Counted from the first letter of the stretch, positions 24,627 to 28,857 are shown. The stretch is 64,000 nucleotides of DNA from Acidobacteriota bacterium (GCA_023265015.1 JAHFUO010000003.1:2866-66865); one strand, 5' to 3'. Numbers and translations are program-made. Notes: generated by a model not told the origin, from the letters alone.

Positions 24627-26185
24627 AGGTCCTGTTCGCCGCGCTGCATTACGGCTACTTCCGGAACCTCGAGTCGGTGGTCGACGAGCTCGCGCGGCGC
24701 GGGCACGACATTCATCTGACCGCCGAGCGCCCCGACTCGGCGTTGGGCGGGCGCTCGATCGTCGAGCGGCTGGCGGCCAGCCACGGACACGTCACGTTCG
24801 GCATGATGCCGCGGCGCGAGCGCGCGTATTTCTTTCTTGCCTCGAAGCTTCGACTCTCGCTCGACTACCTCCGCTACCTGCAGCCCGCCTACGCGAAAAC
24901 ACCGGCGCTTCGCCGCCGCGCGCGCGTGCGGACGCCCCGCGGCCTGCTCCGGGTGCTGCGCCTGCCGCTGCTGGCGACGCCCGGCGGCCGGCGGCTCGTG
25001 TCGCGCGCGCTCGACAGCGTCGATCACGCGATTCCGCCAAGCCCCGCCATCGATCGGTTCGTCGACGAGCAGCGTCCCGACCTCGTGATCATCACCCCGC
25101 TCGTCGGCGTCGTCGCCTCGTCGCAGCTCGACCTGCTGCGCAGCGTGCAGGCGCGACGCGTGCCTGCGGCCGTCTGCGTGTGGAGCTGGGATCACCTCTC
25201 GAGCAAGGCGATCATCCGCGACCTTCCCGATCGCCTGCTCGTCTGGAACGACGTGCAGAAGCGAGAAGCGATCGAGATGCACGGCGTTCCCCCCGATCGC
25301 GTCGTCGTCACCGGCGCCCAGTGTTTCGATCGCTGGTTCGATCGGCAGCCGGCGCGCGGTCGCGCGGAGTTCGCGCGCCGCGTCGGGTTTCCCGACGATC
25401 GGCCCTACGTGCTGTGGGTGTGTTCAGCGCTCTTTCCCGGGAGCCCGTCGGAAGCGGAGTTCGTGATGAAGTGGGCCGCGCACCTGCGCGCCTCGTCCGA
25501 TCCGCGCATCCACGGGGCGGCGATTCTGATTCGCCCGCATCCCTCGCGTGCGCGCGAGTGGGAGTCCGTTGACTGGCGCAGCGTCAGCGGCGTGGCGTTC
25601 CGGGGAGGCAACCCGATAGACGAGGAGTCGCGCGGGGACTACTACGATTCGCTGCACCACAGCGCCGCCGTTGTGGGCCTCAACACCAGCGCGTTCATCG
25701 AGGCCGGCATCGCGCAGCGTCCGGTGATGGCGATTCTCCCCGCGGAGTTCAAGGCAAACCAGGAAGGGACGCTGCACTTCCGCTACCTGACTGAAGGCGG
25801 ATTGCTGACCACGTCGCGATCGCTCGACGAGCACGAGCGTCAGCTTGCCGCGATTCTCGCGGGCCCGCCGACCTCCGTCATGCAGCGGCAGCGGGGATTC
25901 ATCGAGTCGTTCGTGCGGCCGCGAGGCCTGACCGTGTCGGCGACGACGGTCATGGCCGACGAGCTGGAGCAGCTGGCAGCGGCCGGGCCGGCGCGCGCGC
26001 CGAGCGCCGTGCCGCTGACCGGCAGGCTCGGGCTCGCGATGCTTCGCGCGTTCGCGCGCGTCCCGGTGGGACGCCGGCTGCTGCTCGACGAGCGCGAGGT
26101 CAAGGCCAGGAAGCGGCGCGCCGAAGAGGAAGGACGAAGCGCCAAGAAAGAAGAGCCGCGCGGAGCCGCCGACATCGCCCGATGA
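24623..26185 (+). CDS. Family A protein (GT-B-like, RPHP motif)
   Basis: GTG 24623 (GTGA overlap). VKVLFAALHYGYFRNLESVVDELARRGHDIHL, SWDHLSSKAII, VTGAQCFDRWF, ILIRPHPSRAREW, VVGLNTSAFIEAGIAQRPV, EGTLHFRYL. Basic tail KARKRRAEEEGRSAKKEE. Confidence 0.75.
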   Translation: MKVLFAALHYGYFRNLESVVDELARRGHDIHLTAERPDSALGGRSIVERLAASHGHVTFGMMPRRERAYFFLASKLRLSLDYLRYLQPAYAKTPALRRRARVRTPRGLLRVLRLPLLATPGGRRLVSRALDSVDHAIPPSPAIDRFVDEQRPDLVIITPLVGVVASSQLDLLRSVQARRVPAAVCVWSWDHLSSKAIIRDLPDRLLVWNDVQKREAIEMHGVPPDRVVVTGAQCFDRWFDRQPARGRAEFARRVGFPDDRPYVLWVCSALFPGSPSEAEFVMKWAAHLRASSDPRIHGAAILIRPHPSRAREWESVDWRSVSGVAFRGGNPIDEESRGDYYDSLHHSAAVVGLNTSAFIEAGIAQRPVMAILPAEFKANQEGTLHFRYLTEGGLLTTSRSLDEHERQLAAILAGPPTSVMQRQRGFIESFVRPRGLTVSATTVMADELEQLAAAGPARAPSAVPLTGRLGLAMLRAFARVPVGRRLLLDEREVKARKRRAEEEGRSAKKEEPRGAADIAR

Positions 26186-28857
26186 AGATCCTCCTTTTCG
26201 TGCGGCACTATTCGTACCTGCGGCTGTTCGAGTCGGGGATCACCGAGCTCGCGCGGCGCGGGCATCGGATCCATCTCTCCGCCGATCGCGAAGAGTCGAT
26301 GGGCGGCCGCCGCATGGCCGAGCGCCTCGCGGAGACGCATCCGAACATCACGCTCGGGACGACCCCGGGCCGGGCGCCGGGCGCGTGGGCGGAGTTCGCG
26401 AGGCGCCTGCGCCTCGGGATTGATTACCTCCGGTATCTCGATCCGCGGTACGACAACACGCCGCACCTCAAGGCGCGGGCGCGCGATCGCGCGCCGCGCA
26501 GTGTCGTGGCGATTGCGGAGCACCTCCAGGGCACACACGCGCGTGACCTGCTCGCGCGCGTGCTGCGCACGCTCGAGCGTGGGGTGCCGCCGAGCGCGCA
26601 TCTCGAGAACTGCATCCGGCAGCAGGCGCCCGACATCGTGCTGATCACACCGCTCGTGGAGCTCGGGTCCCCGCAGATGGATCATCTGGCGGCCGCCAAG
26701 GCGCTCGGTGTGCGCACCGCGCTGCCGGTGGCGAGCTGGGATCACCTGTCGAGCAAGGCGGTCGTGCGGAACCATCCCGACATGCTGCTGGTCTGGAACG
26801 ACATCCAGAAGCAGGAAGCGATCGAGATGCACGGCGTGGCGCCTGAGCGGGTCGTCGTCACCGGCGCGCATTGCTACGACCAGTGGTTCGACCGCGCGCC
26901 CTCGTGCAGCCGCGAGAGCTTCTGCTCGCGCGTGGGCCTGCGGTCCGACCGCCCGTTCGTGTTGTATCTCTGCTCGTCGCTGTTCCGCGGCACCGCGAGC
27001 GAGGCGGCGTTTGTCGAGCGATGGGTCGAGGCGATCCGCACGAGCGCCGATCCGCGGCTGAAGGACATCGGCATCCTGATCCGGCCGCATCCGGTGCGCC
27101 TCGACGAGTGGAAGGAGATCGACCTCTCCGGATACAGAAACATCGCATTCTGGGGCGCGCACCCGGTCGATGACGAGGCGAAGAACGACTACTTCGACTC
27201 GATGTATTACAGCGCCGGCGTCGTCGGCCTGAACACGAGCGCCTTCCTCGAAGCGGCCGTCGTCGAGAAGCCTGTCCACACGGTGCTCGTCGACGACATC
27301 TCGCGGCACAACCAGGAAGGGACGATTCACTTCCACTATCTGCTCGACGTGAACGGCGGCCTGCTGCGCGTGGCGCGCACGCTCGATGAGCACGTGCGCC
27401 TGCTTGCGGATTCGCTCGCGCCGGAAGGCGGCGGCGATACGAAGGCGCACCGCTTCGTCGAAGGCTTCATCCGTCCGTTCGGCGCGACCGTGCCGGCGAC
27501 GCCGCGCTTCGCGGACGCGCTCGAGACGCTCGGCGCATCGCCGTCGCCTCGTCCTGTCGGCGACGGGCTGACCGAGCGCGTCCTGCGCCTCGTGTTGTAT
27601 CCAGCGGTTGGCGCGCTGCAATTGCTCCTGGTGACGCAGCCGCATCGGAAGCGGGTGCGGCTGCAGCTTCGCAAGTGGTTCCAGGATGGCCGCCGCCGCG
27701 TGTTCGTGACGCTGAAGCAGTTCGCCCAGAACCAGCTTGGCGAAAAGGAGCTGACCGCGGCGCCGCTCGGACCGCCGTCGGCGCTCACGCCGAAGCCTGG
27801 CCGACCGCGCGATCCCGCGAAGAAGCTCGCCGGCTGGAACCTGCCGGAGGCCGAAGAGACGCGCGAGCTGATCACCGCCCTCGGTCGAAGCGGCCGGCCG
27901 ATCCTGATCGGGCCGTGGCTCTCGGAGGCGGGATTCGAGCTGCTCTACTGGATTCCGTTCCTCGCCTGGGCGAAGGCGTACGGCAATCTCGATCCGTCAC
28001 AGCTCGTCGTGATCTCGCGCGGCGGCGCCTCGTCCTGGTATCGCGACGTCACGACCAACTACGAAGACGTCCTGTCGTTCTACACGCCCGACCAGTTCCG
28101 CGCGCGCAACGAGGCGCGCATCATCGAGCAGCGCGGCCGGATGAAGCACGTTGAGATCTCGAGCTTCGACCGCGAGATCATCGCGAAGGTCACCGAGAAG
28201 CGCGGGCTGAGCGGCGTCCGCCTGCTGCATCCGTCGACGATGTACCGGTTGTTCGATCATTTCTGGTTCCAGCGTGTGCCGGTGACGCTGATCGAGGCGT
28301 TCACGTCGTTCGGCCCGCTGCCGCCGGTCGAGATCGGCGACCTTCGAGGCCGCCTGCCGGAGCGCTACGTGGCCGCGAAGTTCTACGGCAACACGGCGCT
28401 GCCCGACACCCCGGAAAACCATGCGTTCGTCGCGTCGTACCTCGAGGAGCTGACACGGCACATCGACGTCGTGCTGCTCAACACCGGGCACCGGTTCGAT
28501 GACCACGAGGACATGCCGCGCGTGAATCGAAGCCGGATTCACACGGTTGATCACCTGATGACGCCGGCGACGAACCTCGACGTGCAGACGCGGATCATCG
28601 CGGGCGCCGAGGCATACGTCGGCACGTATGGCGGCTTCTCGTACGTGGCGCCGCTCGCCGGCACGCACGCGCTCACGTTCTACTCGCACATCACCGGCTT
28701 CCGCTTCGACCACCTCGAGGTGGCCAAGCGCGTCTTCTCCGGCCTGAAGCAGGGGAGCTTCGTCGAGGTCGATCTGCGGTCGGTCGATCTGCTGCGCCTC
28801 GGGTTTGGCGGCGGTTCTCCTGTGACCGATGCCCTGGCTGGGGTGACTCGAGGGTGA
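26182..28857 (+). CDS. Family A - family B fusion protein (891 aa)
   Basis: A module, ~26182-27560: MKILLFVRHYSYLRLFESGITELARRGHRIHL, SWDHLSSKAVV, VTGAHCYDQWF, ILIRPHPVRLDEW, EGTIHFHYLL. B module, ~27830-28857: [73 protein letters not shown]. One uninterrupted ORF. Confidence 0.8.
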   Translation: MKILLFVRHYSYLRLFESGITELARRGHRIHLSADREESMGGRRMAERLAETHPNITLGTTPGRAPGAWAEFARRLRLGIDYLRYLDPRYDNTPHLKARARDRAPRSVVAIAEHLQGTHARDLLARVLRTLERGVPPSAHLENCIRQQAPDIVLITPLVELGSPQMDHLAAAKALGVRTALPVASWDHLSSKAVVRNHPDMLLVWNDIQKQEAIEMHGVAPERVVVTGAHCYDQWFDRAPSCSRESFCSRVGLRSDRPFVLYLCSSLFRGTASEAAFVERWVEAIRTSADPRLKDIGILIRPHPVRLDEWKEIDLSGYRNIAFWGAHPVDDEAKNDYFDSMYYSAGVVGLNTSAFLEAAVVEKPVHTVLVDDISRHNQEGTIHFHYLLDVNGGLLRVARTLDEHVRLLADSLAPEGGGDTKAHRFVEGFIRPFGATVPATPRFADALETLGASPSPRPVGDGLTERVLRLVLYPAVGALQLLLVTQPHRKRVRLQLRKWFQDGRRRVFVTLKQFAQNQLGEKELTAAPLGPPSALTPKPGRPRDPAKKLAGWNLPEAEETRELITALGRSGRPILIGPWLSEAGFELLYWIPFLAWAKAYGNLDPSQLVVISRGGASSWYRDVTTNYEDVLSFYTPDQFRARNEARIIEQRGRMKHVEISSFDREIIAKVTEKRGLSGVRLLHPSTMYRLFDHFWFQRVPVTLIEAFTSFGPLPPVEIGDLRGRLPERYVAAKFYGNTALPDTPENHAFVASYLEELTRHIDVVLLNTGHRFDDHEDMPRVNRSRIHTVDHLMTPATNLDVQTRIIAGAEAYVGTYGGFSYVAPLAGTHALTFYSHITGFRFDHLEVAKRVFSGLKQGSFVEVDLRSVDLLRLGFGGGSPVTDALAGVTRG

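Follow-up and report, generated by a model that had tools for sequence, protein, structure and literature searches.

A conserved gene of Vicinamibacterales joins two GT-B-like domain families and probably encodes a bifunctional glycosyltransferase for a surface glycan

When two protein families are encoded by separate genes in one locus and also by a single joined gene, the joined gene raises the question of whether the two families act together and in what way. We analysed such a gene in a 64,000-nucleotide stretch of an Acidobacteriota bacterium (GCA_023265015.1, JAHFUO010000003.1:2866-66865; the window), where one gene, here called the fusion, joins a module of a family designated A to a module of a second family designated B. 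An earlier reading made from the sequence alone (the sequence-only reading) had taken this gene to mean that A and B work together, either as consecutive steps on one acceptor or as a heteromeric complex. Our analysis points to a likely answer, that the fusion is a bifunctional glycosyltransferase adding two successive residues to one surface glycan. The sugar donors proposed for its halves, a cytidine monophosphate (CMP)-activated nonulosonic acid for A and a different, second sugar for B, are tentative assignments, at best an even call.

The fusion is a single open reading frame (ORF) without interruption, as the sequence-only reading had described it. Since long spurious ORFs are common at the 67 % GC of the window, the length of the frame alone proves nothing, and a 601-amino-acid (aa) antisense ORF overlaps the gene. 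Codon-position GC however supports a coding frame along the whole fusion, linker included, with third-position values of 0.89 in the A half, 0.84 in the linker and 0.91 in the B half and second-position values of 0.43-0.47 throughout. The start ATG overlaps the stop codon of the upstream A5 gene (ATGA) and the GTG start of the downstream B3 gene overlaps the stop of the fusion (GTGA), an arrangement typical of translational coupling in operons. A search of 5.8 billion proteins recovered more than 120 clusters, 885-912 aa in length, with 63-90 % identity to the query over 98-100 % of its extent; the named orthologs come mostly from metagenome-assembled genomes of Vicinamibacterales (Acidobacteriota) and are annotated 'hypothetical protein'. 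Scanning species-representative genomes with a B profile gave 463 confirmed matches, from which 78 species-level loci were kept and their A and B modules mapped. A single open frame was found in 79 of the 84 A-then-B adjacencies, which effectively excludes a stop or frameshift near 27600-27800 as a general explanation. The gap between the A and B matches varied from 138 to 312 nucleotides across the fused pairs with the frame intact in each, and two A-B fusion genes are present in several genomes. We conclude that the fusion is genuine and old and that it has been kept across the order Vicinamibacterales.

Co-occurrence of A and B in other genomes, which the sequence-only reading had proposed as a check, was seen in 74 of the 78 B-containing loci, the other four being short contigs with no more than about 750 bases between their start and B. 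The two families therefore show the Rosetta-stone pattern, being separate genes in places and one gene elsewhere while co-occurring. Among the 150 best B representatives, B stood alone in 117 and was found as A-B in 29, as B-B in two and as B-A-B and A-B-A in one each, and A-A-B proteins exist among the relatives (P0044). Such varied architectures (A-A-B, A-B-A, B-A-B, B-B) suggest catalytic modules that can be freely combined. Relatives of the B family with other architectures were P0254, P0347, P0241, P0248, P0264 and P0044; in P0254 B is joined to a sulfotransferase-like domain. A functional link between A and B is well supported by their co-occurrence, their several joined architectures and their shared glycan locus, so that this part of the sequence-only reading stands, whereas physical A:B pairing is unsupported and its heteromeric complex found no direct evidence. 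Consecutive steps on one acceptor are the likeliest meaning of the fusion because it is old, because A and B co-occur and are multiply joined, and because both are predicted glycosyltransferases within one glycan locus. The six A and six B copies of the window had further been read as a sign of pairwise cooperation. This is not a rule, as 47 related segments of 21 kb around the A-B fusion had on average 3.8 A and 3.7 B modules, with equal counts in only 16, although these segments are incomplete loci and the test is weak.

The AlphaFold2 model of the whole fusion has a mean predicted local distance difference test score (pLDDT) of 83.7 and contains two confident alpha/beta domains (residues 1-455 and 555-872), each predicted to form a two-lobe Rossmann-type GT-B fold and each returning GT-B matches in Foldseek. 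The models thereby bear out the claim that a complete A and a complete B module are present. All family-invariant residues are retained in both domains in our alignments, and both halves are probably complete and active glycosyltransferases. The predicted template modelling score (pTM) of the whole chain is only 0.57 despite the confident domains, compared with 0.88 for B alone, so the model predicts no fixed A-B interface.

Family A is marked by the invariant motifs SWDHLSSK (185-192), VWN (204-206), RPHP (301-304) and NQEGT.HF (377-384). RPHP lies on the second strand of the C-terminal lobe, with the HP codons at 27088-27093, and H303 and P304 are invariant in all 28 A members aligned. In sialyltransferases a D/E-D/E-G motif precedes HP; in A a conserved Q-E-G (378-380) lies C-terminal to HP, and no clear D/E-D/E-G equivalent could be assigned. 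The HP motif itself is found in bacterial sialyltransferases and in the pseudaminic and legionaminic acid transferases of Tannerella (PMC5420450). Profile scans of 28 A modules from the window and its relatives showed that every one matches the BFO_1060_trans model (NF046086) below threshold (best E 8e-11), and that TIGR04396 is matched by nine, the Pfam Glyco_transf_4 N-terminal domain (GT4-type) by 14 and Glyphos_transf, very weakly, by one (E 0.16). On this sequence evidence A appears to be remotely related, below the family threshold, to the nonulosonic-acid transferases of the Tannerella BFO_1060 family. In Tannerella forsythia, BFO_1060 and its orthologs are required for the pseudaminic or legionaminic acid derivative on the protein O-glycan (PMC5420450), and this family (Tanf_01245, TFUB4_00887 and BFO_1060) is the only described one with a consistent sequence signal in A. 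Like A, the Tannerella transferases are of GT-B type, carry the HP motif and adjoin nonulosonic-acid synthesis genes; unlike A they are single-domain proteins of ~445 aa that are unfused and not expanded into paralog arrays. Foldseek searches with the full-length model returned the GT-B structures of NeuC-type epimerases, MshA and WaaG with E down to 2e-10, and these matches belong to the A half as judged from the aligned lengths and from the separate B model.

The invariant motifs of family B are GPW.SE.G.E.LYW.PF, SRGG..WY, HPS.M, YVA.KFY, D.H, NL..Q, VGT.G...AP..G and HL. Modelled alone, B reaches a pLDDT of 88, and its top Foldseek matches include WaaF (1psw), WaaC (2h1f), a Veillonella GT9 protein (3tov) and TibC (4rap), with E from 8e-6 to 1e-4. 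The TIGR04414 model of TibC/Aah heptosyltransferases is weakly matched by 11 of 32 B members (best E 0.039), a sub-threshold signal that goes with the structural matches to GT9 enzymes. By eye the motif layout is also alike, in that the first strand is followed by an acidic-residue loop and the last helices are preceded by a G-T-x-G loop. Unlike the GT9 enzymes, B gave no match to Glyco_transf_9 or any other Pfam family among the 32 members at E up to 10. Pfam and NCBIfam have no model for this orphan family, whose predicted fold is closest to that of GT9 heptosyltransferases. It is also small: of 1.84 billion representative clusters, 1,674 match at E <= 0.001. Neither A nor B reached the threshold of any family when the fusion and all its paralogs were scanned against Pfam and NCBIfam, and single-sequence and profile searches of PDB sequences with A and B gave a best E of 0.067, to an unrelated regulator.

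The two domains are separated by about 100 aa (residues 456-554), slightly more than the 90 given by the sequence-only reading. A C-terminal tail is present in all six A modules of the window in the A-family alignment, standalone A proteins extending 60-130 residues past the catalytic fold, and standalone B proteins carry basic N-terminal extensions of about 35-140 residues. As aligned, the linker would not be a new element and corresponds to an ordinary A-family C-terminal tail. In close orthologs its codon differences are more often synonymous than non-synonymous, for example 43 against 15. Residues 463-485 are hydrophobic and contain proline (VLRLVLYPAVGALQLLLVT), a character that is conserved in orthologs although the sequence is not, and residues 486-519 are basic and amphipathic (HRKRVRLQLRKWFQDGRRR...). 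A variable spacer then leads to a motif with the consensus SALTPKxGRxRDPAKKLAGWNLPEAE. Averaged over 22 orthologs its identity is 82 %, higher than in A (71 %) or B (75 %), which makes it the best-conserved segment of the fusion; disorder is predicted here, the pLDDT being below 50 over residues 519-547. The motif is recognisable in the A-A-B protein P0044 as well. The summed Hessa insertion energy of the hydrophobic stretch is +1.8 to +6 kcal/mol in orthologs, compared with ~0 for true membrane segments (a control protein of the window and the linker of the distant relative P0347), and the stretch probably forms a helix that binds the membrane peripherally and does not span it. A membrane-spanning linker that would place A and B on opposite sides was considered and is unlikely given the positive insertion energies; it is disfavoured also by the like tails on standalone A proteins and by the resemblance of both domains to users of cytoplasmic nucleotide sugars. 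In P0347 the stretch between A and B does contain hydrophobic segments of true membrane-like character.

The window as a whole is a single, very large glycan locus; the surface sugar coat that it encodes would be rich in nonulosonic (sialic-acid-like) acids. A nonulosonic-acid cassette adjoins the fusion. Each of its genes is syntenic with the fusion in 31-40 of the 47 related loci; in 40 a NeuB gene is found at most 10 kb from the fusion, and in 34 a NeuC-type epimerase gene and a CMP-synthetase gene are. The core gene order A4, GT2, A5, A-B, B3, NeuB, NeuC, methyltransferase, CMP-synthetase, B4, B5 recurs in relatives. In total the window encodes two NeuB-type synthases, two NeuC-type epimerases and three CMP-sugar synthetase homologs, together with two DegT aminotransferases, two dehydratase/epimerase genes, two acetyltransferases, several methyltransferases, an APS kinase, a sulfotransferase, three GT2 genes, a YfhO-like protein, a candidate flippase, a WecA-like (Glycos_transf_4) initiating transferase and unannotated polytopic membrane proteins. 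Among the genes of these 64 kb, Pfam and NCBIfam scans recognised no capsule ABC-transporter or export genes. No heptose pathway was recognised in the window either, except for one nucleotidyltransferase at 37620-38072 (+) that is closest to RfaE domain II (heptose-1-phosphate adenylyltransferase, E 1e-16) with weaker similarity to the TagD-like glycerol-3-phosphate cytidylyltransferase. This gene comes shortly after B4, B5 and an SDR gene; in 24 of the 47 relatives it is syntenic, and it might make the donor for B or a cytidine diphosphate (CDP)-polyol.

We propose that the fusion is a single chain with two GT-B catalytic domains that fold independently and would act one after the other on the same growing lipid-linked surface glycan. 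A would most likely use a cytidine-nucleotide-activated donor, probably the CMP-nonulosonic acid made by the products of the adjoining NeuB, NeuC and CMP-synthetase genes, and B would transfer the second sugar, probably by a GT9-like inverting mechanism. The linker helices, hydrophobic and then basic, would probably hold the enzyme at the cytoplasmic face of the membrane by its lipid-linked acceptor, and the other A and B paralogs would probably make further linkages of the same glycan. The fusion itself probably arose once, in the B2 branch, when the stop codon that had kept apart neighbouring, translationally coupled A and B genes was lost. In a neighbour-joining tree a single clade of 90 contains all 79 fused B modules; its 11 non-fused members are at contig edges, in loci where A and B were scored as separate, or in loci without a detected upstream A. 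A single fusion event for both halves was considered and holds for B but not for A, on a crude midpoint-rooted neighbour-joining tree.

Several observations weigh against parts of this proposal. Neither family includes a characterised enzyme. The A scores to BFO_1060_trans, 25.9-28.5 bits for the fusion domain and 64 bits for the best of the window (A1-A2), are far under the curated cut-off of 200, and the alignments miss the HP region. The top Foldseek matches of A are UDP-N-acetylglucosamine (UDP-GlcNAc) 2-epimerases, which have the GT-B fold in common with it, so that the fold alone is not proof of transferase activity. A could use a CDP-polyol instead, a donor made conceivable by the RfaE-II/TagD-like nucleotidyltransferase at 37620-38072. 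No described family matches B significantly in sequence, its TM-scores to GT9 structures are just 0.40-0.45, and the donor assignment could be swapped between A and B, as an invariant HPS motif is present in B too. In the crude neighbour-joining tree the fused A domains are spread over at least three clades, and the history of the A half would therefore not be a simple single event.

The rival that survives best, though we consider it unlikely, is a processive co-polymerase in which the two domains alternate at one chain end to make a long disaccharide-repeat polymer of nonulosonic acid and a second sugar. Known bifunctional polymerases have the same architecture (PMC8600345, PMC5974469), the fusion is strictly conserved, and some genomes carry two copies of it. 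The NmW capsule polymerase has two catalytic domains (PMC8600345), and the W and Y polymerases of Neisseria meningitidis resemble the fusion, as they are described in that paper and in Romanow et al. 2014 as cited there, in joining two glycosyltransferase domains by a linker in one polypeptide. These are a hexosyltransferase and a sialyltransferase, one of which handles a CMP-activated nine-carbon acidic sugar as proposed for A. The domain order is reversed however, the nonulosonate-like domain being N-terminal in the fusion, and no sequence similarity to the fusion is detectable; the genomic surroundings differ too, the fusion having a WecA-like initiator and no recognised capsule export genes around it, and polymerase activity of the fusion would be a prediction of this rival. 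The TagF-like/GT-B capsule polymerases (Cps3D, Cps7D and others; PMC5974469) likewise combine a GT-B-like domain using a cytidine-nucleotide donor, with essential histidines, and a second GT-B domain, and their domains fold and work independently and complement each other in trans. The fusion differs from them in having no TPR domain, and among the 28 A members scanned only the single, very weak Glyphos_transf match was seen. Against a co-polymerase, the locus resembles lipid-carrier block assembly, with its WecA-like initiator, candidate flippase or polymerase membrane proteins, and no recognised capsule export genes. It also encodes at least 17 transferase modules (12 A/B, three GT2, one weak Capsule_synth-like and one WecA-like), and twelve paralogous A/B modules suit many distinct linkages better than one repeat. 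A bolder reading, slightly less likely again, is that A and B are two new glycosyltransferase families that always alternate and that the twelve modules, several of them covalently joined as A-A or A-B and in relatives as A-A-B or A-B-A, form a membrane-tethered assembly line for a long heteroglycan of defined sequence with several nonulosonic acids, the linker motif and the charged helical tails serving as docking or spacing elements.

Obligate A:B heteromers, in which each A would bind a B, the fusion being one covalent pair and the six and six modules making six complexes, are improbable in our view. The two families are interleaved and often translationally coupled, with 49 close B-then-A and 84 close A-then-B adjacencies in the related loci, their mean numbers per locus are similar and fusions are recurrent. 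Each module is however modelled as a complete GT-B with both lobes, unlike the split type of Alg13/Alg14 in which each partner supplies one lobe, and no confident packing is predicted between domains that are themselves of high pLDDT. The linker is long and partly disordered, the unequal counts in most segments and the prevalence of B alone among its representatives do not suit obligate pairs, and the domains of the analogous polymerases act independently (PMC5974469). It is very unlikely that either A or B is a non-catalytic GT-B-fold module with a binding, scaffolding, regulatory or epimerase-like role. The NeuC/UDP-GlcNAc 2-epimerases at the top of the A matches and the lack of a sequence-level tie between B and characterised enzymes would fit such a module, but both domains have dense invariant residues where GT-B enzymes bind donor and acceptor, two canonical NeuC-type epimerases are already encoded in the locus, and six paralogs of each family are typical of linkage-specific transferases. 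Finally, a sequencing or assembly artefact, a lost stop or a frameshift falsely joining two genes, has in its favour the five of 84 pairs that are out of one frame and is effectively refuted by fused pairs from independent assemblies, the protein clusters, the frame-preserving length differences and coding third-position GC of the linker, and the presence within it of the most conserved segment of the protein.

The bifunctional glycosyltransferase favoured here lies among many paralogs, which we counted by tblastn of both fusion halves against the window (Table 1). Five further A modules and five further B modules were found, as the sequence-only reading had it, the A modules sharing 37-50 % identity (E 1e-98 to 1e-145) and the B modules 34-44 % (E 1e-62 to 1e-83). 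The other A modules do lie outside the fusion but not all in separate genes, five modules occupying four genes with A1 and A2 in one ORF. The A1-A2 junction has neither a stop nor a start codon (…GRPARFMFAV…); the pair is also in one frame in one related locus (L014), and is separated by a stop in eight others, in seven with a change of frame too. The housekeeping gene smpB (7704-8183, +) lies directly upstream of B1. The longest B1 ORF (8107-9498) overlaps smpB and third-position GC rises near 8280, so the true B1 start is probably there.

Table 1 Features of the fusion, its paralogs and the adjoining nonulosonic-acid cassette in the window
Feature	Position	Strand	A or B module (tblastn)	Remark
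Fused A-B gene	26182-28857	+	A 26182-27591; B 27802-28854	891 aa, one ORF, ATG start, no internal stop
Family A domain, residues 1-455	26182-27546	+		Predicted complete GT-B fold; pLDDT mostly 80-97
Linker, residues 456-554	27547-27843	+		Aligns with C-terminal tails of standalone A proteins
Long predicted helix, residues 463-519	27568-27738	+		AlphaFold2 model
Conserved linker motif SALTPKPGRPRDPAKKLAGWNLPEAE, residues 532-553	27775-27840	+		Predicted disordered
Family B domain, residues 555-872	27844-28797	+		Predicted complete GT-B fold, GT9-like
A1-A2 tandem fusion gene	13919-17137	+	A 13976-15391; A 15494-16909	1072 aa, longest ORF; likely start ATG at 13976
A3 standalone	17134-18834	+	A 17134-18477	Charged helical C-terminal tail
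A4 standalone	21856-23604	+	A 21856-23217	tblastn, A-family alignment
A5 standalone	24623-26185	+	A 24623-26029	Directly upstream of fusion
B1 standalone	8281-9498	+	B 8530-9456	Start approximate
B3 standalone	28854-29981	+	B 28935-29951	Directly downstream of fusion
B4 standalone	34100-35119	+	B 34178-35089	tblastn, B alignment
B5 standalone	35085-36314	+	B 35370-36296	N-terminal extension of ~90 aa
B6 standalone	45350-46582	+	B 45620-46543	Start approximate
NeuB-type synthase	29985-31061	+		Pfam/NCBIfam; cassette adjoining fusion
NeuC-type hydrolysing 2-epimerase	31058-32215	+		Pfam/NCBIfam; same cassette as NeuB at 29985
Methyltransferase	32312-33235	+		Pfam/NCBIfam; nonulosonic-acid cassette 29985-34001
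CMP-sugar synthetase	33312-34001	+		Pfam/NCBIfam; nonulosonic-acid cassette 29985-34001

Elsewhere in the window, a minus-strand block (9458-13571) between B1 and A1-A2 encodes an APS kinase, a methyltransferase, a polysaccharide deacetylase-like protein, a GT2 and a sulfotransferase. Its genes were found in none of the 47 related 21-kb loci, which centre on the fusion, at least ~12 kb away, and may exclude the block. As B1 directly abuts A2 in several relatives, the block may be a genome-specific insertion adding sulfation. Three paralogous proteins of ~530 aa with 7-8 hydrophobic segments (695-2284, -; 40238-41845, +; 41842-43548, +), the adjacent two of which are 74 % identical, have no Pfam or NCBIfam matches and are candidate glycan polymerases, ligases or GT-C-type enzymes. 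A second nonulosonic-acid module (52714-59016, +) comprises a NeuB-type synthase, a short-chain dehydrogenase, an aldehyde dehydrogenase, the third CMP-synthetase homolog and a transketolase-like protein, an enzyme set that suggests a modified or non-standard nine-carbon sugar. The region 59557-63314 (+), probably the initiation end of the locus, encodes a 657-aa protein with a very weak match to Capsule_synth (KpsC/KpsS-type, E 0.037) followed by a WecA/MraY-type initiating transferase fused to a coenzyme A-binding domain.

Two glycosyltransferase domains in one chain are an established design, and the fusion adds no new principle and will not surprise specialists. What is new are the two domain families themselves, for which Pfam and NCBIfam hold no models, their expansion to twelve modules in one locus and the conserved linker motif. 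The modules provide seed alignments for two new family models, B with ~1,700 representative clusters, and the fusion is a practical handle, offering a pair of activities to test jointly and a natural expression construct. Vicinamibacterales are common soil Acidobacteriota; we know of no characterisation of their surface glycans, and our search for literature on nonulosonic acids in Acidobacteria or Vicinamibacter found nothing. To judge from the locus, the glycan of these bacteria would be of unusual complexity, with abundant nonulosonic acids and probably with sulfate and methyl groups.

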